This document shows positions 2,450 through 23,661 of a DNA stretch of 64,000 bases, piece by piece. Location: contig NW_027117351.1 of assembly GCF_038025025.1 (NCBI RefSeq), forward strand, positions 496,001 to 560,000, given 5' to 3'. Within the stretch, counting starts at the first letter, position 1. Each line of letters begins with the position of its first letter. The DNA comes from Phyllosticta citribraziliensis. Lineage: Eukaryota. Below the pieces are notes generated by a model. It saw only the letters and a program-made list of their open reading frames with translations. It was not told the origin of the DNA and searched no databases. The position numbers and the translations under genes are program-made.

Positions 2450-3592
2450 ATGACTCGTGTCCTGCTCACCGGTGGAAGCGGCTTCATTGCCGCCCACGTC
2501 CTTGACATTCTCCTCAAGCGCGGGTGAGTGTTGCTACATCCCCTGCATTACATGATCAACGCAGGCTCTCTGACAATTCTTCAGGCACTCGGTTGTGACC
2601 ACCGTCCGTAGCCAGCAAAAGGCCGACAAGATCAAGGAAGCCCATCCCACTTACGGCAAGGACAAGCTCGACTTTGCCATCGTCGAAGACATTGCAAAGG
2701 AGGATGCTTTCGAAGAAGCCGTCAAGTCCGACCCGCCGTTCGAGGCCGTCATCCACACTGCCAGCCCCTTTCACTTCAACGTCACGGACCCAATCAAGGA
2801 CCTCATCAACCCCGCCGTGATTGGAACAACGGGTGTCCTCAAGTCTGTCAAGAAGCATGCTCCGACTGTTAAGAAGGTTGTCATTACTTCGTCGTTTGCG
2901 GCCATTGTGAACCCCTCCAAAGGCAACTGGCCGGAGCACACGTACTCTGAGGCAGACTGGAACCCGGCCACACTCGAGGATGCTCACAAGGACACAACGA
3001 GCGCATACAGAGGTAAGTACAGACACGTTCTAGTCGATGGGCCAATGTGCAGATATTAACAAAATACGCAGTCAGCAAGACGCTCGCGGAAAAGTCAGCT
3101 TGGGATTTTGTCGAGAAAGAAAACCCCAACTTTAAAGTGTCTACGATTAACCCCCCTATGGTCTACGGCGAGGTAGTGCACTATCTGAACTCATTGGACG
3201 CTCTCAATACCTCCAACCAGCGCATCAGAGACGCCATTCTCGGGAAGTGGAAGGAGGAGATCCCCCCAACAGGAGGCTTCTGCTGGGTCGATGTCCGCGA
3301 CGTTGCACTCGCACACGTCAAGGCCATGGAGCTGCCTGCGGCGGACCAGAAGCGCTTCTTCGTCACGGCGGGGGCCTACAGTAACAGGGAGATGGTCGAA
3401 GTCATCCGCAAGCATTTCCCCGAGTACCAAGACAAGCTGCCCGGCCCCGACGTGACTAGCGGCGGCTACCCGGAAGAGGGCTCATTCAAGGTGGACAACT
3501 CGCGGTCCAGGACCATCTTGGGCATCGAATACATTCCGTTTGAGAAGAGCATTGTGGATACGGTCAAGTCTTTGAAGGCAGTGGGTGCTTAG
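2450..3592 (+). CDS. NAD(P)-dependent epimerase/dehydratase-family ketoreductase (GRE2/aldehyde reductase II-like), 3 exons
   Basis: MTRVLLTGGSGFIAAH Rossmann motif, VIHTASPF, ITSSFAA, catalytic YxxSK across intron 2, VDVRDVALAHV. GT-AG introns at about 2524-2584 and 3012-3071. Confidence 0.92.
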
Positions 3593-4565
3593 ATAAGCAC
3601 AGTCGGTGGGCAAGAGGAACGGCAACACTCAATGGGTACTCCTGCGGCAGTGAACGACCGCTTCCTGGGCGCAACTGGTTGGCGGATGACAGCTCCCGAG
3701 ACGCGACTGGGGTAGCGTACGACAGCTCCAAAGACGCAAGTGCACGCAACTGCGACAGGGGAAGAACGTTCCCTGATCAGAGCCGCAGTGCTTGGAGCAC
3801 ACATTTCTTTTGACACCATTTGTGCAGATAGAAGTGGAGGTGGGACAAAAGCTTCATGACTATCCTAGACAACGAATATACGATTTGACTTTTCCGCGGA
3901 CCGACATCCCCCATTCTAAACCTGTCCTTGCAAACGTGTGTTGACTCACAACCAAGAGTCAGTCTATCATGCTACTTTTGGCGAGGTCCAGCCATGTGGA
4001 ATGCGTCGATTTGGGTTGTTGGTGCCTGTCTTTTAATCGCGTTAGCACATGGTTTCGCCAAAGCAATGCGATAAAGAGGGAATAGAATTGAAGGGTCAGA
4101 CTGTTGAGCTTGAAATATTTTTGTGAATATCATGGATGACTCAAAAGTTATCGTTTGAAGAAAAATCATCATGAGAGTGAGTGGTTGCGAAGGAACGTGT
4201 GAGAGGGGCTTACCAAAGTCAAATGCTGCCGCTGTTTGTCGATGGTTAGTGACTGCAACTAGCAGTGGCGAGGCGAATCATTGCGCGCCCATTTCGCGCT
4301 GAAAAGCCAAGGTGGTTGTGAGGAAAAACGAGTCGAGGGATTTTGATTTTTATAGCTCGGGGCACGGTGTCGACTTTGTCCGACCATTTCTTGGCGCTTC
4401 CAAGCCAGCAGGCCTGCCTGAGCCCCACCAAGCAGAGCCCCCCACGACAACAAGCAGATTCCGGCACCAACACCCACCAGCTGCGCAACCCCGAACCTCG
4501 ACCTCCACTTTGTCTTCTATTCTCTCTATCCAACTCCAAACGCAACCCCTCGCATTCCACTCAAA

Positions 4566-5290
4566 ATGGCCGGTTCGTCTCCGCGGAAACGCAAAGTGCT
4601 GTCTGAGAGCTCGACTGACGGGATCCTGCATAGACTTCCAGAACATTGCGAGTACGTACCCGCCAGCAGAAACAGCAAACAAATCCTCAATCAGCTTTCG
4701 GGACGGCCGATACAATGTTTTGCATCATACTGACTCTTATGCGCAGCTCAGTTCGTCCAGTTCTACTACAAGACGTTCGATGAGAACCGCGGTGGCCTCC
4801 AGGCGCTCTACGTACGTTGGGCCCTGCTGCATGATGAGTGGCACGAGTGATTGCTGACGCCGTGGATGCTGTAGCGCCCTCAATCCATGCTCACCTTCGA
4901 GTCCAACGCCGTCCAGGGCACCGAGGGCATCATGGAGAGGCTGACCGTAAGCGAGAAGTCTGCACGCGCTGTCCCCGAATGACTGTCCTGACACTTGAGC
5001 TTCAAGAACCTGCCTTTCCAGAAGGTCGTCCACCAGGTCGCCACTCTCGACTCGCAGCCCGCCAGCGAGGATGGCTCCATTCTCGTCCTGGTCACCGGTG
5101 CTCTGCTGGTATGTTGATGTCATAATGATGATGGAACCGAACGGGAGAAACGGTCTGACATGGCGTGCGATAGGTCGACGAGGAGGGGAGGCCCATGAGC
5201 TACACCCAGGTCTTCACCCTGCGCCCCGACGGCAACGGCAGCTACTTTGTCTTCAACGACGTGTTCCGCCTCGTCTACCCTGCTGCCTAA
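4566..5290 (+). CDS. NTF2: Nuclear transport factor 2, multi-exon with 5' micro-exons
   Basis: Spliced product MADFQNIA.QFVQFYYKTFDENR..LQALY..QSMLTFE...LPFQKVVHQVATLDSQP...LVLVTGALLVDEE.RPMSYTQVFTL...YFVFNDVFRLVY matches NTF2. Not recovered as one ORF in the track. Confidence 0.93.
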
Positions 5291-6079
5291 AGAACGAGAC
5301 GGAGGGCGGTGCCGCTGCAGGTGGTTTATCAAGTCGAGTTGAATACCTGGGTTGGTGCACATGCGCGAAGACGCAGTTCGGGGACGTGGTTCCCAAGGGA
5401 TAGCAAGACGAGGCTTTTTGACCTGCCCAAGGTTGTTGATAAATGCTATGATTTGATGCGCGCATAACAGGCCGTCCCGCCCGTGTACCTGCGCCATGTG
5501 CGGGAAGGGCGCGGAGCCAGCCGACAGACATGGAGACGGTGAAGGGCTACGTTGTTGTTTTGCCAGGCTCTAGCGGGTGTACTCTGCGTCGCTGTGGGTT
5601 GCGAAAAGTGAAAGGATCCTTGTTAAGTGGCAGCGGCTTAGGCGGACGCGACTCCCTCTCGTGGCTGAGCTTTCTCCAAAGTACCAGCGGGCGCGGTGCG
5701 GTGCGGCATACCAGTACGGCCACGGGTGCCTGTGCCCTGGCGCAGCTGCGGCAGAAGGCGTGGCAGGGTCCTGTCCTGGCCACAAAGCTCCAAGTCTTCT
5801 GAAACTCAACACCATCTCGACCACTCCACTCCACCTTACGCCAGGCAGTATAATTCGTCGCCGTCGTCAGAAGCCCGCGCCCAGCCCGATACCCATTCGC
5901 TTCCGCGCTGCCTAGCCACCTGTAGCTTCGCACCACCCCCGAGCCTGCGCCAAGCGATCAACCATCGCACGGAGCACGCGCATCCAGACCATACCTGCAC
6001 TGGCACTGCAGGCAGCCCATCAACCCCACGACCTCGACCGAGACCGGGAGCCGCTGTTTGACGCAGCTAGACAGCCATC

Positions 6080-6896
6080 ATGACGTTCAGGGAGGAGCTC
6101 AAGTCGAGGAACTTCAGTAAGCTGCGCAAAACCGCCCCGGCCCGCCCGCCGCCTTGTTTGTTGCTTGCTTGAAGCTACGTTGCTAACACGGCGACCAGGT
6201 ATATACGGCCAATGGTCAGTACACCCTTTCGCTGCCTCTGCCTTGCCCAAGAAGCTTGCGTGCTTCGTCGCCGCGCAACTGGACATCGGGGAACCTGCGT
6301 CGGCAGATTTGCGCATCGCCAGGGAGGACCCGGTGGTCACAACAGAGCTGGAGCCTACACCATCAGGACACTGGGGATACTTGCGCCGCGCGCCCGGACG
6401 GACGCCGCAGACGCTGGAGAGCGATGCTGACAGCAACGCAGGACCGGAATTCTTTGTGTGATCCTGTGCTTTGCCATGGGCATTGCCAACATTTTCTCCG
6501 GCTTCCCAATCATCGTATTCAGCATCATTTGCCTGTGAGTCGGGTCCACCTCCTATTAGCGGACGGACGAAATTGGCTAACTCGTTTGATTCCAGCGCAT
6601 TCTCACCCGTCATCTTCTTTGTTGAAGTCGCCTTCCTCCTCAAGCTGCCCATCTGGTCGGAGGGCTTCCGCACCTTCTTCCGCCGCCTGCAAGAGAACTG
6701 GCCGCGCATCGTCATGTACCTGGTGATGAGCGTCGTCTTGTGGATCAGCTTGGTCGGCGGCGCCAGCTCTCTGATTGTGCCCGCCGTCTTCCTCTTGTTC
6801 GCCGGCCTCTTCTACTTGCTGGCTGCGCTCAAGAACCAGGACTTCCAGAGCAGCAAGATTTTGGGCGGACAGGGCGTTGCGCAGATGATCATCTGA
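6080..6896 (+). CDS. TVP18: Golgi apparatus membrane protein TVP18, 4 exons
   Basis: Spliced N-terminus MTFREELKSRNFSIYGQWTGILC and C-terminus SKILGGQGVAQMII are typical of fungal Tvp18; several hydrophobic helices. Confidence 0.9.
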
Positions 6897-8663
6897 GCTT
6901 GACAGAGAAAGAAAAAATAATGGGGTTCCGCTGCTTTTGCGCCGTCTTTTTGGTGCTGTTTGCATGGGCGAGCTTGCACCGTATCGATGTACCATGGTAG
7001 CAGGTTGCAGCAGGCTGACGTCACTTTTGATGTTCTTGTACGCGGCTTCACTTTGAACGTCTTTTTTGGCTCGTCGTCGATGGATGGACGCAGACGCAGA
7101 TGCAGAGCGAGCGAGGGGGCATCATTCTGTTGTTGGCAATACTGGACTTGAACTCTTTTTCCTTTCCATTTCTCCTTCACTTTTCACCCGTCGAGGAATC
7201 GCACCACCACCACCACCACCACCACCAAACCATTAGGTACCTCTAGTCTAGTGTTGACACAGTATACAGGAGTTTTAAGGATGGGAAAGGGAAGAATGTG
7301 GAATCAGAGGCTTCTCTTTTATCCTCTTTTTTTTTTTTTTTTTCCCACGTCCTTCTGGTTTTTATCTTTGCTGCTGCTGCTGGTTGTTGAATTGACGTGG
7401 CTGTTGTGCTGCTGAGGATGTAATACTGATTTATATCTAACCGTGTACCCACCATCTGTATATTCCGGTGCTGCTGCCTCTTCTGCAGGTCTTTGACTAC
7501 CTACCTACATGTACCCAGTCAACGTCTACATGTATATGACGAGCGAACTCGAGGGGAAAGAGAAAAAAAAAAAAAAAAGAAAAAGAAAAATGCCCCGCCG
7601 GATACGCCACGCCACACCACGCCACGGTGGAGCAGGGGAACCCACCAGCGGCGGCGCCGCAGCGGGGACAGCGGGGACTGGTTGATAGGGATGCTGGTGC
7701 AAAACATGGCTGTTGCACAAAGACCAGTCGATGAAAAAAGATTTGGCTAGAGAATGACAGTGTAGCATGCAAAACTGCCCTGTTTCAATACATCTACAGA
7801 CACAACGCGCTGGTAGGCGTAGGTCCCCGTCTCGTCAGGCGGGCGGCAGGCCAACCGATTAAACGTCCAACTCGGGTAGCTGACATAGATGGCTTGCCCG
7901 GCGCTGGCCGGCCTAAGGTACCTATGTATGTAATTAGGAGAGAGCGTGCACGCGTCAGGCACAGCATCACCGCAGTCAATCGACGAACGACGTGTGTGCG
8001 GTGTGCTGGTGTTGGTGTTGGGAGAGGAGGAAGCAAAAGGTAAATGGCGCGGCCACCACGGCAACCGAAGCGAACGGGGTCCGCCGCTGCGTGCTGTTGG
8101 TCGACGACGAGGCCGGGGGCAGGCAGGCAGGCAGGCAAGCACCCCAGTTGACCTAGGTCAGGTCAGGTACCCATGATGGCGCTTCGGGTTCTGTTGGAGG
8201 TGCGCCAGGAACAGAACTGAAAAGGTGCGCCCTGATGACCGCATCGAGATGGCGGGCTCTTGTTGGACAGGCAGCGCATCTCAGCAGCCACCTCACCCAC
8301 GCAGGGCTTCATCCATCACGTGGAGACGGCGAGAAACCAAGAGCTGGTGGGGTGGCATCGGACCAGATGCGATTGGGGCGGCTGCAGCGCATCGTGGGAT
8401 GGGCTGGATGGATTGATGGATGGATGGATGGATGGATGAGAATGTGATGCGGTTGGAAAAAGCTGACCGGCGGGACTAGAAGAGACAGACGAACGAATAG
8501 GAGCAGGCCCAATATCATCGTCAGATATGCAAAGTAAATGGCGCTTTCACCTTGTCGTGGGGTGGTGCACAGCCTGCACGGCGTCAGAAGCTCGGCCGTG
8601 GCTCCTGGGACTGGCACCTTGGTCTTGGTGATGGTCGAGCATCCCCGGCCTTGTCTGGATACC

Positions 8664-8792
8664 TATAAACGCTGAATCCCCAGTACCGTAGCTTCACGGT
8701 GCTTGCGTGCTTTTCCACCGCTTCACGTTTCTCTTTGTTGTCCTCGGTCTGCCCTGCCCCACCCCACCTGCTCCCTCCTCGACAAGGTACGT
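8664..8792 (+). promoter_or_regulatory. Probable AIM21 core promoter and first non-coding exon, with 5'-UTR intron donor
   Basis: TATAAA at 8664-8669, a CT-rich tract, then AAG|GTACGT donor at 8787; GCTAAC branch site at 8881-8886. Confidence 0.55.
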
Positions 8793-8891
8793 CGGTGATG
8801 CATGACCTTACTCCTGCAGCTCCTCCTGCATCTCTCGACACCAATGCTTCCCTTTCGCTTCCCGTCGTCTCCACCCGCTTGCTAACGTCAT

Positions 8892-9158
8892 TGTTGGTGG
8901 TCCTGTGTAACAACACCAAGCAGTCTCCCGTCGCGTCATCTTAGCTGCAGTTTACCTAGATAACTACAGCTTATCTAGATAATAACTTGCTACTTTAGTC
9001 AAGATATACTTATCTATTAGCTTCACACATCTTAATAAGTTTAGGACTTATTAGTAGTTAGTACCAGCTACTACTCCCCCTAGTAGTTTTAGTAGTATAT
9101 AGATAGCTCTTAGAGTAGCCTTAAATAGAGTCTTTAGTTCTCTCATCTTACTTTATCA
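8892..9158 (+). repeat. Copia 5' LTR (267 bp)
   Basis: Direct repeat of 19505-19771; the differences seen are C/T and G/A transitions. Confidence 0.95.
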
Positions 9159-10893
9159 GGTTATAAGCCCTCACATTATATATATAAATTACTTATCTAG
9201 CTTATTTTAGTATTATACTATAATACTATCTATATAATTATTACTAATAGTTATTTTATTATTTTATTATTTTATCCCTTATTATCTTATATAATTTCTA
9301 CTCTTTAGTAAATTTATTAGTATTATCTATCTCTATAACTCTAAGTAATATACTAATAGTTATTACCTTTATTATAACTTTACCTTCCCTTCCTCCTTTA
9401 TTATCTAGTAGTTTAGGCTTTACTACCACCTTATCTTCTATACTAGCTAAGTAGGCTAAGGCTAAAGAAGAGGTAGACCTAACTATAAATAATAGTAAGT
9501 TTAGTATCCCTTTAAAGAATATCTAGCCACTTAAAGGCCCTACTAACTAGGTAACCTTTAAGATAATAGTTAAGATAAGGCTTAGTCTATTCTATTATAC
9601 CTATCTACTTAAGGATAAGCTAAAAAATACTACTAATTATAAGAAGGATATATATATTATCTACTAGTTTATAATAATTATTATACTTCCTATTATAATA
9701 GTACTATAGGGGTATACTAGTTTAGCTTGCTCTATATAGTAGAAGCTTTATAATATATATAATACTAAGGGTATCCTCTTTAAGGCTAATATTATTAAGG
9801 ACTTTATCTTCTATTAATATAGTAATTTTATAATAGTAAAGGAATTCTATAATGCCCTATATAAATAAAGGTAAGCCTATATTAGCTATATCTAATAGTA
9901 AGTTAAGGACTAGATTCTCTATATTCTACTCCTAGAAAACTTATAGGATGATATTTCTATCTAGTATATAACTTAGTATATAAATTAGTATAATAAGAAG
10001 GAGATACCTAAGTTTAAGGATCTCTTCTATACTATAACTAATAAGATTAAATATACTAGTAAGAATAGTACTATAGCTCTTACTATTTATACTAGTTAGT
10101 AGTCTACTAAGTAGTCTAAGTCTAACTATACTACCTATAATTACTATAGAAAGAAGGGGTATATTAAGGCTAAGTATAGCTATCTTTACCTTAAATACCA
10201 TCCTACCTATTAGAAGCCAGTATTAGGGGTATTCTATATACTAGATAATTAAGTCTCTAAACTGCTAATAGTAGTAATAGTAATAATAATATTAATAACT
10301 AACCCTCTAGTATAAGGTGCAAACTACTTTACTACCCTATACCTATATCTAGCTTTAATAAAGGATGAATAGATTATTAATACTAGGGCTAATACCTACT
10401 ATATACTAAATTTAACTAAGCTAATAAACTACTTATAGTTTATATAGCTAGTCTAGGTATATAGTTTAGGTATAGTAATAGCTATTAGCTATAGTAATAC
10501 TATACTTTACTATCCTATAAATAGTATAGTTAATACTCTTATAATAGAGGGTGTTCTATATATTCTAGTACTAATAGTTAGTCTTATCTTAGCTTTAAAA
10601 CTTAAGTAGAAGGGACTATACCTAGATTAGCTTACCTCTATATTATAAATATAAAACTATAGAATAGCTATTATAGCTTGCCCTAATAGTTTAGGGGTAA
10701 ATATTCTAATAGTTATTAATAATAATTATATAGTATAAGTATTTACTATAGTAACTCCTCCTATAGTAATATATAAGATATAGTACTAGTAATTAGGGTA
10801 TATCTATACTGGCGCGCTTAATAAGCTCTAGTACTAGGGATAACTTATTATTACTAGTAACTAAGACTTCTATTATAAATCCTGCTATATAGC

Positions 10894-11316
10894 TGTTATA
10901 ACTTGCAGATTTCTTATTATATAGATAAGGGCTAAAGGTAAACTACTAGGAAATATATATATATCTTAATTAAATCTAATAAGTTAAAAGAATAAAATAT
11001 AAAAGATACTTACTATCTATATATTTCCTAGTCCTTCCTTTATACTATTCTACCTCTTATCCTTTATATAAGGGTCCTTAGTTATTATTAGGTAAGTTAT
11101 AAAGATAAGGTATTAATAGGCTGTTATGTGGTATCTTCCTAAGGCTATAGTAGCTAGTACCAGGCTATAGTAGCTAGTACTAGCCTATAGGTTTCAGCCT
11201 AAGCTATAGTAGGCTGCTACCTAAGGTGAGGCTTATACTTCTTATAACTATATAATACTAGGTTTATCTATACTAGCCCTAGTACTTATATAGGTATATA
11301 TATACCTATTATAATA
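10894..11316 (-). repeat. Gypsy 3' LTR (423 bp)
   Basis: Direct repeat of 18711-19133; contains an internal 20-bp tandem (aggctatagtagctagtacc, about 2.4 copies); next to the PPT. Confidence 0.95.
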
Positions 11317-11799
11317 TGCCCCCCCTAAAGAGAAGCTAAAATCGTAGGAATTAGCAGCTATAGGCGCTTATATAGGTATAGACTTATAATATATAATAGT
11401 AGTAATTTAGTAATTTAAGCATTCTATACGTATAGTATAATTATTAGTCTAGGTCTACTACTATACTATCTCTTTCTATTACTATCTCTTTTACTGCGCA
11501 ACCTATAAAAGGTTACTATCTTACTTAGCTATATTTAAAGCTCCCTATTAAAGTACGTTGTTATCCTAGTCTAATTTAGCTATAATCTAGTAAACTAACT
11601 ATTATATATAAAGGTTCTAATAATTTAAATAATTTGTACCCTACTAATAGTAAAGCAGATATTTCTAGCTGCTATATGCTTAATATATCTGCTACTTATT
11701 ATAGTCTAGTCTATTAGGACTTATTACTATTATATAAGAGTTATAGTATTAAGTTATTATTATACGGCATTATTTGCAATCTATTATAGTTACTACTTA

Positions 11800-13036
11800 C
11801 TTAGAGAGCTATTTTAGCTAGTAGTATCTATAAGGACCATTATATAGAGTCCTAAAGTAAGTAAACTTTAATTCTATCTCTAACTATTACTAATTATTAT
11901 CTAGGCTATTAAGTAGTATTATATATCTAGGTTTTACTACTTCATCGTCCCATCTTGCCAACTAATATAATTATAGAGGAGGACACTTATATAAAGACTT
12001 AATTAGGCTAGGCTTTACTTATTTAGCTAGGAATAGCTATAGGCTTATTACTTTACCTATAGCATACTATAGTATTAGGTTCTACTTAATTAGTATTATT
12101 AGTTATTATATAAGGTTCATCATCTATAGCTATACAGCCTGCTACTAACTAGCCTATTATACTACATCACTGCTGGTTCACTGTCGCGCAGCCTGTTTTA
12201 GAGGAAGAAGGTAAAGAGCCTACTTATATATACTATTATTATAATCCTATAGCTTGTTAGGTTCTAGCAGCTAAGTACTTACTACCTGCTACTTTATATA
12301 ATAGCAGTAATAGTAAGATTTATATTACAGCATTACTAGTTAGCTCTAATAAGGCGCCTATTAAGTAGGACTTTAAGTTAATACTTTATATCTCTTATAA
12401 GAATATAGAGAGTGTCGCATAAGTAAGTTTATCTTACTAATATAAGGAATTCTTATCTAACTAACTATATAGGCGCACCTTAGTAGTTCTAAAGTATAAG
12501 AGCGCGCTAAGCGCATCTTAGCCTTAGATAATAGCATGCCTTACTTATATATTATAGTTTCTACTTAGTAATTTAACTACTTATTAGTTAAAACTTAAGC
12601 CAGCTTATACGATACTTTTCTTATCTAGTATACTAGAATTAACAACCCTATTAGCTATACTAAGTATTATAATAATACTAATACTCGCGTATTTATTAGT
12701 TATTACTACCTACCTAGTTTCTTATAGGGCTGCTATACTAACTACCTTTAAGGTATAGGCAACCTTAACTACACTATAAGTAACTTAAAGAGTGCCAAGC
12801 CGCCTGCTTATTATAAGAGGTATAAAGATAAAATTTATATAGAGGAGTTTTAGAACTTATACTACTAAGCTAGATTAGAGGATTAAACTAATTAGGCTTT
12901 AGCTAAGTAGGACATCCTACCTAATAAGCTAGAAGATCTAGAGGAGATAGTCTTATATAATAACTATTATAATAAGAAGAAGGGAAAAGGAAAGAAGTAA
13001 AGAGTAAAAATTAAAGAAGAGGATAGTAGGGAATAA
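11800..13036 (+). pseudogene. RIP-degraded, spliced accessory gene inside the Gypsy element (antisense to gag-pol), DUF3716-like Cys-rich domain; 5' end uncertain
   Basis: De-RIP reading of 12599-12780: ASSYDAFLIQ.TG.DNP.GC.KC......VF.GC..LPGF..GCCANC.......C, followed by an acidic tract and KGKKxRVK. GTAAGT..CTAAC..TAG intron at 12423-12472; possible second intron at 11857-11904. Confidence 0.65.
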
Positions 13037-13139
13037 GTAGTAAAAAGGAGAGACTAGAGAGTAGAAGTTAAGATTAATAGTATTTATATAAGGGTAGATA
13101 GTAAACTAATTAGTCTACTTTCTATATCTTTATAATATT

Positions 13140-16100
13140 TACTATAGGCCTAAGTAACTTATTTTATTATTACTTTCTATTTTAATCTATAGTTCTTCTT
13201 AGAGAAAGGCAGCCTTCTATTTTTCTAGATTTTTTAGTAGTCCTACTATAATAGGGTGTAATAAGTAGAATTCTTTAATTTTCTATAGCGCGCTACTAAA
13301 AGAACTTATATTATACTACTAGTTATCTTAGTTATATCTAGTCTATTTAACTTAGTATTAAAGCTTCCTATATAAGACTTAACTAGCTTAAATATAGTCT
13401 ACTTCCTACTTAGGCTTATCTTAAATAATCTTAGGTTTAGGTTTAGTATATTCCTAACTAGGAAGCTATTCTATTTTAGCCTTATATAGCCTATTAGTAT
13501 AGAAAAGGTTAACTATCTTTATATATAAGGGAAGATTAAGGATATAGGAGGGTCCTTCTATTTCTATAATCTTAAAAGGTCTAGTATTAGGGAAGTCTAA
13601 TTTAAGGTTTAGCTAATTAGTAGACCATCTAGTTTTCTTAATATAGATATAATCTCTAACTATAAAGTCTAGCGCGCAACGGTATTTATTAGCTTATTAG
13701 TATATATACTCTTAGGATTTAAGAATAAGATTCTTTATAAATTTAAAAGCTTCTTATCTTCTCTTTTATAGCATTTATACTACTATATAAGCTATCTTTT
13801 CTAGTTACTAGGGGGTCTCTATTCTTTATTACTAGTTATAGTATATTTAAGGGGAATATCCTAACTTAATCTTAAAAGGTAAAAGTCTAGTAGCTTTATA
13901 GGGAAGTGTTACTTATATAAGGTCTATTAATAGTAGAAGATTAGACTAATTATTCTAAAAGTAATTAATAAAAGGTCTTAATCTTTATATAAGATACTAA
14001 TTAATAATCTCTATAATACTATTAGTTTAAGAGTAGTAGGATAAGTTAAAATGCTACTCTATACTAGTCAGCTTATATAGTTTATTTATAAATGCTAAGA
14101 TGAACTAAGGGCCTTAGTTAGATAGGATAGACTTAGGGTTTCTATAAATATAGTAGATATATTTATAAAAGAGTCTAGAGACTCCTTTAGTATTAATCTT
14201 CTTTATATAAGGCAAGCTAAAGGTTCTTTAACTTAACTAGTCTATAATAACTAGAATTATATTATAGCCTTTTTAGTCTTTAGGCATCTCTTTAAAATCT
14301 ATAGCTAAGTATTACTAGGGTTAAGTAGGAATCTCTAGGGGTTATAGAAGGCCTAGGTCTTTATTATAAAACTCTTTTATTTAGTAGTAAATATAGCATC
14401 CTTGCCTATAAATATTAATTATGTGATTTATAGCTAGCTAGTAGTAATATTACTTAAGGAGTTTTTACATCTTTATAATACTAGAATAGGCAGTTATATA
14501 GGTAGTATATAAAGTATTAAGTATTCTTGTGCGGAGGTTATTATAATCTAGTATAAAGAGGGTACTATATTATAATAAAAGACCATCTTTTAGTTCCTAA
14601 CTATTTCTTTATTTAAGGTCTTTTAAGAGGGCCTTCTATCTCTAGAGTTCTAATTTAGAATCTTCTTAGTTTATATAGAGAAGTTTATCTAAAAATAATA
14701 CTAGAGAAGGAAGTTCTTATTCTAAAATAGAAAGAGGGATAATAGTCTCTAGTAGGATAAGGTATATCTCTTATATAGCCTTTACTTTTTCTTTTTAAGT
14801 CTTTAGGTCTTCTTATTTTTAAGTAAGGTAATTAGTAATAATATTTTCCTTTCCTAGCTAATAGGAGAATTATATATAGAACTCTATAAAAAACTTAGAC
14901 TATCTAGCTTATTATTAATTAAGTTGTTATTTAGTAGAGTAGTACTCTAATACCTAATAGTCTATTATTATAAGAAAAGGTTTTTTAAGGCTAATAAGTA
15001 TTAGTCTCTATTCTTCTAGTCTATTCTTAATAGCTAGTAGTTCTTTATTAGATATTCTATAATAAAGTTCTACATTAGCTATTACCTTAGAGTAGAACGC
15101 TACTAGTTTCTAATTATATAAAGGTTATTAGAGCTATATTAAAACGCCTATAGTAACTCTATTACTTATATTAGTCTCTATATAAGTATTAAGAGTAGGG
15201 TCATAATTAGCTAGAAGTATATTACTATATATTAGCTTCTTAAGTTATTAAATTACCTCCTCTTCTAGGGGTCCTAGTAGTTACTATTTTACCTTAGAGT
15301 ATAGTTTCTCTAATAGCTAGCTAATTTATCTATAGTTAGGGAGAAATTATTAGTAGAAATTATAGAAACCTAAGAAGGATTAAAGAGCTTTAAGGGTTTT
15401 AGATATTAGCTAGTTTTATATAGGTTCTACCTTATCTAGGTCTATCTAAATACCTTCTATAGAAATAATATATCTAAGAAACTTTATATAAGTAACTAAA
15501 AACTTACTCTTCTTTAAATCTACCTATAGTCCTACTTTTTATAGTCTTACTAGTACTTTTTTTACTTATTCCTCATACTCTATAGGGTCTTTAGAGATAA
15601 TAAGTATATTATCTATAAAAGCCATAATAAAATCATCTAAATACTTAAAGAGAACCTAGTTAATAAAACATTAAAAGGCTATAGGTCTATTACTTAATCT
15701 AAATAGCAAGATATAGTATTTAAATAAGCTATATCTTATATAGAAGGTAGTCTTATCTTTAGAATCCTTAGTAAGATAAATATAGTAGAAAGCTTATTAA
15801 ATATTAAGCTTAGTATAAATTTTACCCTTTCTAACGCGCTAAAGTAACTCTATAATAAGAGGAAGGGGGTATAAATCCTTAGTAGTTTATTTATTAAGCT
15901 ATTAGTAGTCTATATAAAATCTCTATCCCCCACTAGGCTTTTTTACTATAAGAATAGGAGAAGTATAGGTAGTAAAGCTCTTAGTAATAAAGCCTTTTTA
16001 AAGGTTCTTAATAATATACTCTTTTATAGCCTTAAGCTGCTCTAGAGATATTCTATAGAGAGGACTAGGTAGAAGCTCTAGTAGACTATTATATATAAGA

Positions 16101-18600
16101 GATATTTTATAATTAACCCCTACATAATATAGTAGTAGCTTATTAGACTCTATTTTAGAAAATACATCTTAAAATTCCTTATAAGTAGCTAGTAGCTTAG
16201 AAGCTAATAATTCCTTAGTTTCTTTATCTTTAAGAGCCACTTAAACTTATATAAGGTTAATAGTATAGATCTCTATTAGCACAACTTATATTTTATAGAT
16301 AGAAAGCTTAAAAGCATCTTAAGTTTAAAATTTAATTCCCTTAATAACCTATATTAAGGGAAGAAGGCATTTATTAAAGTTTTTATCTCTATAGTCTATA
16401 TCTACTTAATATTCTTTCTATAGTTCGTTACTTTATATAGAGACTTTTAGTAGGCATAAAAGATACTAAAAGGATTAGTTAACTAGTAGCTATCTCTAGA
16501 CTAGTTTATATTATTTATAGTCTAGAAGAACATCGTGCTAGTTAAAAAACTATTACCTAAGAATCATGTTATTACGGCTAATATTATAAATAAAAGTATA
16601 AGTAGAAACTATTTAATCCTAGAAGTAAAGTTAAAGATAAAAGTAAAAATTAACTTTCTTATTTATATATTAGTTAAACCTAGTAATATTAAGCCCTTTA
16701 CCTATTATTCTCTTTTTTATAGCACCTATAGACTAGAGAGTTAGTAGTAGCTTAGGGTAAATAAAACTTATACTACTAGTACTAGTATTAGCTAGGGCAC
16801 GAATTTCTAAGGCGCGGCTATTAGATATAATTAAGGTTTATATAGTAAAGGGTATACCTCTAATAAAGTAACTAAGATTTATATAAGAACCTTTAATATA
16901 TATTACTCTAAGTTTAGACCTAAGGTAGGAGACTTTACCTAGGCCTTATTATTTTCTAATAAAGACTAATCTCCTTTATTTATATAGATATCTTTAGTAC
17001 TTTCTTCTTTAACTAACTCTATTACCTTTATCTTAGGTTATAGGCATTATCTCTATAAATAGCTAAACTAGCTATAGCAATTATATGGTCTAATCTCTAT
17101 ATAGACTTCTACTTTACCTTTATAGGTTGTATTATATAAGGGAGCCCTAGATATAGATCGCGCCTAGGCATAACTAGAAGATAAAGTACTTATACTATCT
17201 AAGATAGTTATCTTTACTTATTCTTATTATCTCTTCTTTACTTATTTCTTATATAACGTAAGTGTTAGTTTTCTATAGTTAGAATAGTAGTTACTAAGAC
17301 TTTAAGTAATAGGGTAGGCTTATTAGAGGTACTTATAAAAGTTAACATCCCTATCTTACTCTATAGTAACTATATAGGTTTAAAGGAGAGGATCTATTAT
17401 ATTATAAAAGTCCTCTTTCTACTATTCCTAAGGAAGATCTATATCTAAGGCTAATTATATAAAGTTTAATTAAAACTTCTAAAGGTCTATAGAGATATAG
17501 TATATAAGAGAGTATAACTACTTCTTTATATCCTTATATTTATATAGACTCTAAAAGAGGTTATCTAGGAATTTAAAGATATCCTTATTTAGAGTGACTT
17601 TATTAGCCTTTATATAAGAAGTAAGGAAAGGAGTTAGGTAATATAAGACTTCTCTACTAATATAGGAAATAATATAACCTATAATATTCTATTTAGTCTC
17701 CTCTACTATATCTTTAGTAAAGTAATTATAGTTTTATTTAATTTTATTTTATATAAGGAGGGTCTAGTATTTATATAAGGGGTCTTCTCTATTAGTAAGA
17801 AGAGGAGGATTAGGAACCTTACTACTTTAGTATTTCTTACTACTTAAAGATAAAGTAGAGGTTTTAGTAGTAGTTTCCCTTATATAGTTAGGAGGAGGTC
17901 TAAGAGTCCTTATAACTCTACTAGTAGAAGGATCTTAAGAGAGGGTAATAGGTCTTAAGTACTAAGCTAATAAAAAGGGCCTAATATATCCTTCCCTTAG
18001 AACTTCTCTAAGTCTATTAGTATAGTTTAAGAGCATTTACTTAAGAGCCTAGTTTTACCTTTATATATAGTTTAGTTACTACTATACTTAAGACTTATTT
18101 AAGGATGCAATCTTAGATTTAAATTAATTAATATCTAAGCGCGGTACCTTTATAAATGCCTCTATAACTAGAGCTTAAACTGTATAAGTTAACCCTAGGT
18201 CTTAGGTATATTCTTTTACCTCTACTACTAGGACTAAGTAGAAATTATATAGGAGAATAGGGGTAGGTCCTCTCTTATTATTATTTAATAAGTATCTAGT
18301 ATTATATAAATCTTTAGTTCCTTTATATAAATCTTATTAGGTTAATTAACTAGTACTAATACCTTTAGTAGTACTAGATATATTAGCTTTATTCTTAGCT
18401 ATACTATCTTTATAGTCTTCTACTTAGAATGTCCCTTAAGTAGGTTATAGATAGGACACCTTCTAAATATTTATATACTACTCTATAGCCTTAACTAAAG
18501 ACTTCTATAGTTAATATATACTTAATACTCCTTAGTCCTTAGATAATACTAATGCACCTAATAAAGACGACTTAGATTTACTAAGGAAAAGTAATAAGTA
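13140..18600 (-). pseudogene. Gypsy gag-pol (RIP-destroyed; ends approximate)
   Basis: Domain motifs as listed for the element; many TAA/TAG codons at positions expected for Gln/Trp/Arg. Confidence 0.85.
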
Positions 18601-18710
18601 GTCTTATATAAGACTATAGCTATATATAATATTACTTAGGTTAAATATTATAACACCTTTATAGGTAAAGAAGTAGGATAGAGCTAAAACTTAAAATAAT
18701 CTTTTATATC

Positions 18711-19133
18711 TATTATAACTTATAGATTTCTTATTATATAGGTAAGAGCTAAAGGTAAACTACTAGAGAATATATATATATTTTAATTAAATCTAATAAG
18801 TTAAAAGAATAAAATATAAAAGATACTTACTACCTATATATTTCCTAGTCCTTCCTTTATACTATTCTACCTCTTATCCTTTATATAAGGGTCCTTAGTT
18901 ATTATTAGGTAAGTTATAAAGGTAAGGTATTAATAGGCTGTTATATAGTATCTTCCTAAGGCTATAGTAGCTAGTACTAGGCTGTAGTAGCTAGTACCAG
19001 CCTGTAGGTTTTAGCCTAAGCTATAGTAGGCTGCTACCTAAGGTGAGGCTTATACTTCCTATAACTATATAATACTAGGTTCATCTATACTAGCCCTAGT
19101 GCTTATATAGGCGCGTGTATACCTATTATAATA
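18711..19133 (-). repeat. Gypsy 5' LTR (423 bp)
   Basis: Direct repeat of 10894-11316; minus-strand TATATAAA at about 18880-18887. Confidence 0.95.
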
Positions 19134-19504
19134 TCTAGATAACTTAAGTTCTTACTAAAATAGGTTATAAGGGCCTTAATACTTAACTAATCTAGCTCTA
19201 TAATAATAATAAGAATGCTGTCTAATTTACTAATAGTATAGAGTTTAATACTGCTATAAAATATATTAATCTATACTACTAGTATATTAAGTAGGTAGTT
19301 ATAGATAGAACTATAACTATCTCTTATATCTCTACTAATAAGATAATTGCGGACAGGCTTATTAAAGTATTAGTAATAGTTAAGTACTACTACTTTTATA
19401 ACCTTATTAGGTATAGACTAATATAGTAAGTTTTCTATTTAGTTAATATAACTACTTATATATCTACTCTACTATAACTATCTCTTTTCTTATCCTAGGG
19501 GGTA

Positions 19505-19771
19505 TATTAGTAGTCCTATATAATAATACTAAGTAGTCTCCTATTATATCATCTTAGCTACAGTTTACCTAGATAACTATAGCTTATCTAGATAATAACT
19601 TACTACTTTAGTTAAGATATACTTATCTATTAGCTTCACACATCTTAATGAGTTTAGGACTTATCAGCAGTTGGTACTAGCTACTGCTCCCCCTGGCAGT
19701 TTTAGCAGTATATAGATAGCTCTTAGAGTAGCCTTGAATAGAGTCTTCAGTTCTCTCATCTTACTTCATCA
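19505..19771 (+). repeat. Copia 3' LTR (267 bp)
   Basis: Follows the PPT, ends in CA and is followed by the GTCAT TSD. Confidence 0.95.
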
Positions 19772-19868
19772 GTCATTGCCATCCTCCAGCATTCGATTCC
19801 CTTCATCTCAGCTGTCTTTGCAACCCGACATTTATTCCTCTAGCATATAACCCATCATCGTCACCATC

Positions 19869-22800
19869 ATGGCTGCCCCGACCATCCCTCCTCGTCCAGC
19901 TCGCTCCACGCCTCAGCAGCAAAACCCCAACGCCAACGCCAACGGCAACGGCTCGACAGCCATGCCCAGCATCCCTCCTCGTCCCAAGCGCAGCACCGAG
20001 CGCTCCATCTCCCCCAACCGTGACAACTTTGCCCGCTCGCCCCTCAACGACCCCTCGTTCATCAACGGCTCGAGTACGAACCACAGCAAGCGCCCCTCCG
20101 CTTCCGATCTCCCAGCTCGCCCACCGAGCGTCACATTACCCACCATTGGCCAGGAGGGCAGCGAGTATGCCTCCTTCGACACACCGCCCATCGATGAGAA
20201 TGCCCCGCAGCAAACCAGGGATGCCGAGGGCCTGAAGCTGTACGCTCCCACGGCGTCGCTGCCGCAGTCGACGAACCGGTCGAGGATTGCCGGCGTGACG
20301 CGCGCCGACTCGGCCCAGGTGGCTGCTGCTGGCCTGGGCAAGAAGCCGTCCGAGCCCGATCTTTTCCCCGGCGGCCACTCTCGAGGCCACTCGAGGAGCG
20401 GCTCGTCGACGGGCCGCAGCTCGCGTCCGACGTCACTGTACCAGCAGGACGAGGAGCACGGCATCCCCGAGATTGGCTTGCAGGTGCCCATGTACCCGAA
20501 TGCGGGAGACGTCCAGGCCCCGACGCCCTCGCTACATAGCAACGCCCCGTCGACGGGCGTCGGATATTTCAACAATGGTGGCAGCAGCAGTGCCAAGCTC
20601 CATGGTCGCCCCTTTGCGGGCCCGCCTGGTAGTTATGGCATGCATGGCCACGGGCTGAAGCCCACGGATGACCTGGAGAGGAAGTGGTATGCCACTCATC
20701 CAGACGACGCGGCGCGGGAGGCGCAGGGCGCGTATGGCCCGGCCATACAGGAAAATAGAAGGGAGTGGACCCTGAGCAGCGAGCAGTTGAATAAGCTGGT
20801 GCAGGAGAGTGCCAACAAGGGTGTTGGAATGGGTACGATCAATATTGATTCGGGTCGATCTCGACCTCTGTCCAAGCTAATCGTCTGCATCTAGGCGCGT
20901 CCCCGGCTGTCACGGCCACTCCTGGCGAGGAGATTGGCTACATGGCTTCTGAAGAGTATGCCTCGCGCATGACTTCCCCTCGCCCGCAATCCGTGCCGCC
21001 AAAGGAGCGCACTCGCAGCTCCCAGACGCACGCCGAGTCGCCGCTCCGCATGACCAAAATGGTGGCCGAGCAGGCCCTGGACGGCGGCGACGACGGCAGC
21101 GCCATTGAGCACGACGACGAGGGAAATGTCATTCACATTGACCCGCCCGCGCATCCCCGAAGTGAGATGCACGGCCCTGGCATCGACTACGACGAGTTGG
21201 GTCCCGAGGGTGGCAACGGCGAGGAGCACGGCGGCTTCATCACCGAAGACGGCCGCGGGACGCCAGTCCTCGCTTCCGACGAGCTCAAGAGGCATCAGAC
21301 GCCTGGCGGCGAGTACCAGCAGCCGGCGGTGCCGGCCGAGCTCGAGCATGAACGTAGGATTAGCCAGGAGGGCGGCGAGTATCACCGCCGGTCTGGGAGC
21401 AGATCGACCAGCCGGCCCACCAGCGTCTCGCGCTGGAGAAGCCAGGGCGATGCCGAAGACCGCTCAAACACTCCTCTTGACGGCGTCAAGGAGTATGAGC
21501 CGCTTTTCCCTGAAGAAGAGGACGAGAAGCCTGTAGAGAAGCCGCTCACGGCTGCTGACAAGTTGAAGCGCCCGGAGCTAGCGCGCCACCATTTCCCCAG
21601 CCAGGACGTTTGGGAAGACACGCCGAGCAGCTTGCAGTTGCAGGCGGAGGTCCAAACGCCCGAAGTGCCGTCTCAGCCGGCCTCGGGCACTGCGTCGCTC
21701 GAGTCGTCACAGGTGTTTGAAAAGCCTGAAAGGGAGCAGCAGCGCAAGGCTGATGCGGCGCCCAAAGACCAACCACAACAGCAAAGTTTTTTCATTCCTG
21801 ACCAAGCCAAACGCCTTGCTCACCTGAATAAGGATGTGCTCGCAGACATGCCCTCGCGACCCGGCATGCAGCAAAGATTCCCCAGCCGCGACATTTGGGA
21901 GGACACGCCCGACGAGCTGAAGCTCGTCACGACGGTCAACGCGCCGCAGGAGCAAGAGTCGCCGTCTGAACCAAAGTCGGCAGTCAGCGACGCCCCACCC
22001 AAACCGCAAATACCGGCGCGACCCGCGCGCGCGAAGCCCGGCGAGTCGCCCGTTGAGAAGAAAGCAGCGCCTATCCTCCCCGACCGCCCCAAGCCCCAGA
22101 TTCCAGTCCGCCCGGCTCGCCCCGCCCACAAGCCGTCTGACGAAGCGGTCCCGTTGTCCAAGGTCTCGTCGGCCAGCAGCAATAACACGGCCACGGCCGA
22201 CGATGCAGCCGCTGCCGCCGCGCCGCCGGTCACCAAACCCAAACCCCCTGTCCCTTCGCGCCCTGGCGGAAGTAAGATTGCCGCCCTCAAGGCAGGCTTT
22301 TTGAGCAATTTGGAATCGCGTCTGCAGCTGGGCCCGCAGGGCCCGAAGAAGGAAGAAAAGGAGGACGAGGTCAAGGAGAAGGCGCCGCTGGCTGATGCGC
22401 GCAAGGGCCGTGCAAAGGGGCCGGCGAGGAGGCGTCCAGGTGCTGGTGCTGGTGCTGCGGCTTCTGCGCCTGCGGAGTCGACCCAGAAGCCCGTTGCGTT
22501 GTCGTTTGCCAAGGCTATCACTGTCTTTGCGATTGATGAGGACGGCGCGCTGGATGTCCCCGAGTTGAGTGCTGCGCGTGCGGGCGAGGAGAAGGATGGC
22601 TCGGCGGAGGCGAAGGAGATTGCGACGCAGGTGCCGCGGGACCCGCAACCGGCGCCCGGTGATGTAGACGGCGAGACGAAGCCCGTCGTCGATGTCAAGC
22701 CGAGTGATGAGGGTGCGGATGACGCCAAACCCGCCGAACCAGCAACGAGAGAAGAGCAGGACGAGACGCGCCCCGCTGCCACCACAGCCGCGCCGCAGTC

Positions 22801-23266
22801 GTCGACACAAGCTGAATCAGAGACAGCGGCAGGCGACGACGAGCCCGTCGAACAATCTCCCCTCCTCGCCAAACAGCCGACCAACGCCACCGCCTCGTCG
22901 ACGTCAGACTCGACGACGCAGACGGGCCAGCAGGACATCGTCGTGCCGCCCGCTGCTGCCGCCGCCGCTGCCCCTGCTGGTGCAGAGAGCGAAGGCGACA
23001 AGGCGACCCAGACGACCACGGAGAAGATCACGGCGTACCTGGGCGGCCGCGCGCAGGAGGACGGCAGCGTTGTCGTGCGTGAGGTGCTTGCTGGCGAGGG
23101 AAAGGGTGAGAGCCGTGCGGTTGGTGAGGGGGAGGGTGAGGACGGGGGTGAGGGGGACGGTGAAGCGGGGCGCGACGTCTTGTTGCGGGAGGAGTTTGTT
23201 GGCGGGGTGGGCGAGGGCGGCGTCGTTGGCGAGGCGCGCGTGCAGAGGACGGGGCATGGGATGTAG
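19869..23266 (+). CDS. AIM21: Altered inheritance of mitochondria protein 21-like actin-patch/capping-protein regulator, 2 coding exons
   Basis: Pro-rich PxxPxR motifs, FPSQDVWEDTP and FPSRDIWEDTP repeats, GSKIAALKAGFL..LE.RL..GP, and a CPI-like LADARKGRAKGPARRRP motif. Intron at about 20833-20894. Confidence 0.85.
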
Positions 23267-23661
23267 GGTTCGGCTTGGCTGGGCTGGTCTTTTTGAGGGG
23301 TGTGGTGGGTGGGGATGGGGATGGGATGGTGATGGGGAGGTAGATTGTGTGGTTGGACTGCGTCTAGCGAAGGGGAATATGGTGTTGCGCGGCGGTCATA
23401 GACGTCGATGGATGGTTGGACGGACGGACGGACGGACGGATGGGATAGGTGGTGGATCTAATCCAATGGAGTGCTCAGTTTGTTTCGTCCTTTTATGGCT
23501 TTCGTGTCGTCTCGCCTTAGGCTGGCTACCCCTCACCCCTTACCCCCTTAGCGTCTGTGTTCTCTCTATCTGTACACACGCCACGCACGCCCCCTTCCTG
23601 ACCATACACCACCAAGAACGCAGACGTTGGAATTTCGATTCCTACCCATCCCTCATCCCCT

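Follow-up and report, generated by a model that had tools for sequence, protein, structure and literature searches.

The divided leader intron of AIM21 in Phyllosticta citribraziliensis: a RIP-mutated retrotransposon between an old promoter and a gene that is still expressed

Where does the transcript of a gene begin once a retrotransposon has come to lie between its promoter and its coding region? The question is posed by AIM21 in a 64,000-nucleotide (nt) stretch of the genome of Phyllosticta citribraziliensis (termed here the window, to which all coordinates refer), where an AT-rich island of 10,880 bp (8892–19771) stands between two copies of GTCAT and divides an intron of the 5′ untranslated region (5′-UTR). 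The answer that we favour, with a probability of about 0.55, is promoter uncoupling and replacement, with an orphan RNA as the present product of the old promoter and with AIM21 transcription beginning where the 3′ long terminal repeat (LTR) of the inserted element meets the flank. Motifs were read directly in the sequence at 8400–9300 and 19400–20300, and the anatomy of the island was worked out by repeat finding, self-BLAST and pairwise alignment. The RNA evidence consists of the assembled contigs of four public runs, aligned to 6500–23500; runs X1 and X2 are from organism A, which bears the insertion, X4 is from a related organism B, and X9 is from another relative, which may or may not carry the insertion. 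The coordinates of the individual features are collected in table 1.

The island is a true insertion, with a pair of LTRs, TG..CA ends, a purine tract and a target duplication, GTCAT, at 8887–8891 on the left and 19772–19776 on the right. Its point of entry lies in the final 18 nt of the leader intron, between the sole CTAAC branch motif and the acceptor. The initial annotation of this DNA had proposed that the insertion separates the branch site from its acceptor, and so it does: the only CTAAC motif is upstream of the island and the CAG is downstream. The motifs on which that proposal was built can all be read in the sequence, namely the TATAAA box, the pyrimidine-rich tract downstream of it (approximately 8720–8786), the donor AAG/GTACGT with its GT at 8787, the GCTAAC, both GTCAT copies and the acceptor. 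On the right-hand side, TGCCATCCTCCAG occupies 19777–19789 and ends at the acceptor, which lies upstream of the ATG as described, at a distance of 79 nt and not 80 (ATG at 19869). There is no ATG either in the exon 1 stretch (8700–8786) or in the leader at 19772–19868.

The outer element of the island is an LTR retrotransposon, as its direct LTRs, TG..CA ends, target duplication and polypurine tract show. Because the purine tract AGGGGG (19497–19502) directly precedes the 3′ LTR, the element lies on the forward strand, in the same sense as AIM21, which bears out the orientation assigned to the 3′ LTR in the initial annotation. The two LTRs are 89% alike, and all of the internal differences between them are transitions. 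This is one mark of repeat-induced point mutation (RIP). The G+C content is 0.25–0.31 inside the island versus 0.51–0.67 in its surroundings, with values of 0.56–0.64 in the flanks. RIP is indicated by C:G to T:A transitions between repeat copies, a TpA/ApT ratio above about 0.89 and a (CpA+TpG)/(ApC+GpT) ratio below about 1.03; throughout the island these indices are 1.76–2.33 and 0.10–0.64, respectively, versus 0.33–0.74 and 1.23–2.29 in both flanks and AIM21. The island is thus RIP-mutated, its indices being extreme and its LTR differences transitions only. AIM21 itself is intact and free of RIP, as had been supposed, with normal indices and a translation that equals the annotated protein.

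Is the divided intron a real one? Removal of the island together with one GTCAT rebuilds an intron of 118 nt (GTACGT...GCTAAC...CAG) whose branch A stands 19 nt before the CAG, a reconstruction in which donor, branch motif and acceptor are as the initial annotation gave them. Fungal introns have the donor consensus GTANGT and a branch consensus, CTRAY, placed 10–30 nt from the acceptor; the rebuilt intron matches both, and has GT..AG borders. When the flanks were shuffled, a junction-spanning GTANGT/CTAAC/YAG intron arose by chance in 95 of 20,000 trials, and one of a looser pattern in 590 of 20,000.

RNA from a relative carries the corresponding exon junction. Record 17 of X4 (5312 nt, depth 726) aligns to 8754–8778, continues with seven letters and then follows AIM21 from 19788 onward. 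Since the seven letters plus the AG aligned at 19788–19789 amount to the last 8 bases of exon 1 plus one extra base, this contig joins exactly 8786 to 19790. The initial annotation had held that its reading would be refuted by empty-site relatives that do not splice 8787–19789; what was found is a relative whose RNA contig has the joint, which is seen in this related species only and not in the insertion-bearing one. All four runs, X4 included, contain spliced RNA, since the adjacent gene has a GT..AG intron of 61 nt (6535–6595) that is skipped in the contigs of each.

A wider comparison drew on metagenomes, with 47 loci that have AIM21 relatives (at most 57% identity), 31 of which are preceded by 300 nt or more of distinct sequence. 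Within the 400 nt before the ATG, the donor–branch–acceptor pattern occurs at 19 of the 31 loci versus 3 of 31 reverse-complement controls, counts of sequence pattern only, in which several loci are near-duplicates and about 14 configurations are distinct. The candidate leader introns measure 187–272 nt, with the acceptor mostly 46–78 nt before the ATG and branch motifs such as CACTGAC 12–18 nt from the acceptor. Well-formed candidate 5′-UTR introns are present at the metagenome loci L003, L005, L008, L012, L014, L015, L020, L024, L027, L029, L030, L032, L034 and L037. The leader intron seems to be conserved across Dothideomycete-like fungi, and AIM21 orthologues across the Dothideomycetes probably share a 5′-UTR intron; such introns are rarely recorded in gene annotation. 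We conclude that the AIM21 leader intron is genuine and old, and that the flanks of the island are the two halves of a real 5′-UTR intron.

In the insertion-bearing species, where X1 and X2 match the window almost perfectly in AIM21, RNA is found on both sides of the island. Record 2 of X1 (214 nt, depth 645, 0 differences) covers 8710–8923 without splicing: it begins about 41 nt after the TATAAA box, crosses the donor and the 8891/8892 junction, and reaches 32 nt into the 5′ LTR. It is not DNA contamination, because 7634–8200 has no cover in X1. Record 10 of X2 (212 nt, 8912–9123, depth 456) shows 0 differences to the RIP-mutated 5′ LTR. Further into the island the depth is 8.5 (X1) and 1.8 (X2) at 9335–9901, where the X1 contig has T>C at 9496 relative to the window, i.e. 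it comes from another copy, and 0 at 9902–11035. At the other end, the AIM21 mRNA is represented by X1 record 7 (3307 nt, depth 151), in which the intron of the coding sequence (CDS) is spliced out. This contig begins at 19768–19771, in the last 1–4 bases of the 3′ LTR, and retains the former intron tail (19772–19789). Among the joints listed for X1 and X2 there is none from 8786 to 19790 and none that leads from 8786 to a site in the LTR, although absence from contigs is not proof.

These observations can be accommodated in a single sequence of events. An LTR retrotransposon would have inserted, in the sense of the gene, inside the conserved 118-nt leader intron, duplicating GTCAT; a Gypsy-like element would then have nested in this outer element, and RIP would have destroyed both. 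AIM21 would have been uncoupled from its original promoter and its non-coding exon 1. The old TATA-containing promoter would fire still, and its transcript, unable to complete splicing, would pass the unused donor into the 5′ LTR; we infer that it ends in or just beyond that LTR, as an orphan non-coding RNA. AIM21 mRNA would start no more than a few bases from the junction between the 3′ LTR and the flank (~19771), with a new leader of about 98 nt that has no upstream ATG and keeps the former intron tail. Three fates had been offered for the transcript in the initial annotation, and a start in the 3′ LTR is the one that fits best, though only at the last 1–4 bases of the repeat. If a start at ~19771 is right, the core promoter (−1 to approximately −100) consists of RIP-mutated LTR DNA, with a TATATAG at −62 to −56. 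It is possible that the RIP-degraded LTR is the working core promoter of AIM21, with the ancestral promoter 11 kb away feeding an orphan non-coding RNA, but to this stronger claim we give only tentative credence, and would sooner doubt than assert it.

Several points weigh against promoter replacement. Contigs cannot show the start, the end or the level of a transcript and they drop rare variants, and a minor or even a substantial isoform with exon 1 joined to exon 2 may have escaped them; contig depths, moreover, cannot rank genes, and hence provide no comparison of expression change between AIM21 and its neighbours. The assembled strain may itself be the source of X1, and perhaps of X2, which would then not be independent of the window. 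The AIM21 contig starts (19768–19771) where a repeat boundary lies, which is where assemblies break; at most four LTR bases are present in it, behind 20 adapter-like letters, and a contig start does not define a transcription start. The 20 loose letters before 19768 are presumably sequencing adapter. On its short side the X4 joint is anchored by 25 letters, aligned with the likeness threshold set to 80, and sides shorter than 30 are warned against; the same contig keeps the CDS intron that X1, X2 and X9 skip, which may reflect intron retention or the choice of an assembly path. DNA of an empty site was not seen among the metagenomes, in which the closest AIM21 orthologues, at no more than 57% identity, are too distant. 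The contigs of this locus show no transcript that passes from the 5′ LTR to the interior of the element (the uncovered parts of the island being an absence in contig data), so that in this copy the retroelement promoter of the LTR itself seems inactive. Lastly, the X9 contig begins about 29 letters before 19806, near 19777; its 5′ letters allow no confident choice between exon 1 and intron tail, but by eye they resemble the latter, and this could reflect a native proximal start that predates the insertion.

Such a native start, at or after the end of the leader intron, would mean that the insertion only removed a distal isoform and that the LTR adds nothing specific. The start of X9, a contig from a different organism that shows no exon 1, is what it would predict, and in AIM21 itself the start falls at the first non-LTR bases, with no transcripts driven by the RIP-mutated 5′ LTR into the interior (depth at 9335–11035). 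Yet X4, the sole relative with a resolved leader, has exon 1 spliced to exon 2, and the X9 organism could itself carry or lack the insertion. A native core promoter upstream of ~19771 would, moreover, have been displaced by 10.9 kb, and LTR DNA sits in its place regardless. We think this account unlikely, while giving it some weight. A start deeper in the 3′ LTR (at the U3/R boundary) or elsewhere in the island, amounting to classic read-out with a contig truncated at the repeat boundary, is more doubtful still. Words unique to the LTR/flank junction should have extended the contig by as much as about 30 nt into the LTR, where adapter-like letters are met at 19768 instead, and a start upstream of 19648 would bring in an upstream ATG. 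In its favour are the sense orientation of the element, TATA-like motifs in the 3′ LTR at 19517 and 19709, and the behaviour of other LTR copies, which are abundant in RNA (A>G and T>C variants at a depth of 3106–8223 in X2) and at least one of which reads out into its own flank (a loose end behind 19771 in X1).

The two remaining fates both depend on splicing from the old donor. In one, the old promoter would still make AIM21 mRNA through an intron of approximately 11 kb (8787–19789), for which a branch site would have had to arise close to the acceptor. Both splice sites are intact, transcription of exon 1 persists, and a rare variant might have been dropped from the contigs; but the joint from 8786 to 19790 is absent from X1 and X2, even though exon 1 and AIM21 were both assembled at depth, and the AIM21 contig holds the acceptor region (19772–19789) in unspliced form. 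RNA cover of the locus stops by about 9335, and 10.9 kb now separate the acceptor from the branch motif that once served it. An intron of this length would also be out of line with those usual in filamentous ascomycetes, which range from tens of nt to a few hundred, and we rate it as very improbable. The least credible of the alternatives is a gene trap, in which the donor at 8786 is spliced to the first AG after the branch in the 5′ LTR (AAG/CAG, 8919–8923; placed at 8918–8923 in the initial annotation). Branch site and donor are both intact, and the first AGs after the branch A at 8885 lie at 8919 and 8922, some 35 nt away; the sole contig there, however, is the unspliced X1 record 2, which reads through into the 5′ LTR instead, and no joint of this kind is present in X1 or X2. 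Promoter replacement, with an orphaned exon 1 and a start at the LTR edge, is the reading that we retain.

The outer LTR has less mutated copies elsewhere that are strongly transcribed, with at least one reading out, as follows from variant contigs and loose ends. Transcribed copies carry G/C where the LTRs of the window have A/T; contigs with G/C at such positions (8892–9172 and 19457–19698) reach a depth of up to 8223 in X2. Three X2 contigs enter at 8892 from other flanks, and one X1 contig leaves behind 19771. A joint from 8972 to 19633 (X1 and X2) was considered as a deletion allele and rejected: the contig behind it derives from an LTR copy with fewer mutations, and its start matches the 5′ LTR while its end matches the 3′ LTR.

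How does this arrangement compare with known systems? Mammals, insects, plants and yeast all offer classic cases of transposable-element insertions that supply an additional promoter or supplant the existing one, and a sense-oriented LTR upstream of a coding exon can capture the role of promoter, as in mouse intracisternal A particle (IAP) alleles such as agouti viable yellow and in retroviral promoter insertion. The AIM21 locus resembles these in that an LTR element lies between the native promoter with its first non-coding exon and the coding exons, and in that transcripts from upstream stop short of the gene, which is apparently expressed from the downstream end of the element. Unlike the epigenetically variable, intact LTR of agouti viable yellow, the AIM21 element is a RIP-degraded relic, and the apparent start, judged from contigs, falls on the final bases of the LTR and not at a defined U3/R start. 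The class of mechanism, promoter uncoupling and replacement by LTR insertion, is known already and no new class is opened; less usual are the nature of the insert, a RIP relic, and its position, where it splits a conserved leader intron.

Among fungi, work on the melanin regulator of Zymoseptoria tritici describes a transposable element inserted upstream of the promoter that lowers expression (PMC6047131). Both cases involve a natural insertion in the 5′ regulatory region of a Dothideomycete gene, treated as a regulatory allele, but the AIM21 insert is inside the leader intron, where it parts the CDS from promoter and exon 1, and expression of the gene persists. In Neurospora crassa, RIP relics are described as nucleating heterochromatin whose spread is restrained by DMM-1 (PMC9023284). 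Like those relics, the AT-rich RIP block of the window, which the initial annotation took for probable heterochromatin and which is at most a candidate for it, adjoins an active gene across a sharp compositional boundary; the putative AIM21 start is 0–100 nt from it. We know of no Neurospora case with an active start within 0–100 nt of a RIP block. Literature searches found no paper on the AIM21 locus, and for Phyllosticta none that treats RIP, or transposons other than as a total repeat content; two genome papers on the genus give that content as about 5% and describe Illumina transcriptomes, and neither RIP nor transposons come up in the passages searched.

The locus constitutes a natural experiment: its leader intron has been split by 10.9 kb of RIP-mutated DNA, and a housekeeping-type gene 97 nt downstream is intact and expressed. 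Should the start be confirmed, it would document the replacement of a promoter by a dead LTR in a RIP-competent fungus, provide a handle on the minimum distance between an active start and a RIP block, and show how a promoter can be left, with its exon 1, as the orphaned source of a non-coding transcript. Were the LTR also to act as the promoter, RIP relics would be exaptable as promoters, and the boundary between active and silent chromatin would be sharper than 100 nt.

Table 1. Features of the AIM21 locus and of the nested elements within its leader intron (coordinates in the 64,000-nt window).
Feature	Position	Strand	Remarks
TATAAA box, ancestral AIM21 promoter	8664–8669	+	read in sequence
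Ancestral non-coding exon 1 of AIM21, now orphaned	8710–8786	+	start approximate, from contig end
Split intron, 5′ part	8787–8891	+	donor GTACGT 8787–8792, GCTAAC 8881–8886, left GTCAT; unspliced in X1
5′ LTR, outer element	8892–9158	+	267 nt, TG..CA, RIP-mutated; this exact copy transcribed
Left internal remnant, outer element	9159–10893	+	G+C 0.254; no recognisable coding domains
Inner Gypsy-like LTR retrotransposon	10894–19133	−	~8.2 kb, nested in outer element
LTRs, inner element	~10894–11316 and ~18711–19133	−	~423 nt, 94% alike
Integrase core (weak), inner element	14096–14323	−	rve, E 0.024, 15.3 bits, under the Pfam cutoff of 32.6; same frame, downstream
RNase H, inner element	14882–15265	−	RT_RNaseH, E 2.3e-09
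Reverse transcriptase, inner element	15470–15946	−	RVT_1, E 2.7e-13
Right internal remnant, outer element	19134–19504	+	ends in purine tract AGGGGG 19497–19502
3′ LTR, outer element	19505–19771	+	267 nt, TG..CA; same sense as AIM21; TATATAG 19709–19715
Right GTCAT, intron pyrimidine tail and acceptor	19772–19789	+	CAG 19787–19789; in X1 record 7
Ancestral exon 2 leader	19790–19868	+	79 nt, no upstream ATG
AIM21 coding region	19869–23266	+	exons 19869–20832 and 20895–23266; 1111 aa
AIM21 CDS intron	20833–20894	+	62 nt, GTACGA..TAG; skipped in X1, X2 and X9 RNA contigs

The island had been described as a single element, but repeat finding, self-BLAST and alignment resolve it into two, one nested in the other. 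Of the interior of the outer element only about 2.1 kb is kept (9159–10893 and 19134–19504), and six-frame translation of it, with stops read as X, gave no Pfam family at E ≤ 10; its last 122 codons have 0 matches among 1.84 billion representatives. The label ‘Copia’ attached to it in the initial annotation is consequently without support, no RVT_2-type reverse transcriptase with an upstream integrase having been found by Pfam and no match by protein search, although heavy RIP and the loss of about half of the interior may hide Copia domains. A supposed likeness of its last frame to the C-terminus of a Copia polyprotein was dropped. The inner element is Gypsy-like, its RVT_1, RNase H and weak integrase core following one another on the same strand in the order of Ty3/Gypsy. 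No matching pair was found at its borders (10889–10893 and 19134–19139) as a target-site duplication. The missing inner duplication and the short outer interior suggest a deletion, or recombination between elements or between two inner insertions. In their LTR pairs, TG..CA ends, 5-bp duplication, nesting and RIP, the elements resemble the Ty3/Gypsy and unclassified LTR elements of fungal AT-rich isochores, and the inner one shares the reverse transcriptase–RNase H–integrase order of fungal Ty3/Gypsy; they differ from them in that the outer element has an interior of only ~2.1 kb with no detectable domains, and the inner one has no matching duplication.

The identity of the gene downstream is clear. 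Pfam PF11489 (Aim21) matches both halves of the open reading frame (ORF), with E-values of 6e-76 (profile positions 1–288) and 1e-96 (301–717); the protein has 476 homologues at E ≤ 1e-10, and the ones listed carry PF11489. The spliced translation is identical to a public annotated protein of Phyllosticta citribraziliensis (P0001), and the ATG at 19869 is the conserved start, because the N-terminal residues are common to three other Phyllosticta proteins. Two studies on the yeast protein describe Aim21 as a partner of Tda2 and of capping protein at endocytic actin patches (PMC5896931, PMC5551697).

Upstream of AIM21, the gene that contains the 6535–6595 intron is a small membrane-protein-like ORF (6462–6896). 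Between this gene and the AIM21 promoter lies an RNA contig of X2 (7353–8396; 1115 nt, depth 68, no differences); with no obvious gene there, the transcript may be non-coding or unannotated. A short GGAT-type microsatellite follows at 8406–8438, some 270 nt before the TATA box of AIM21.

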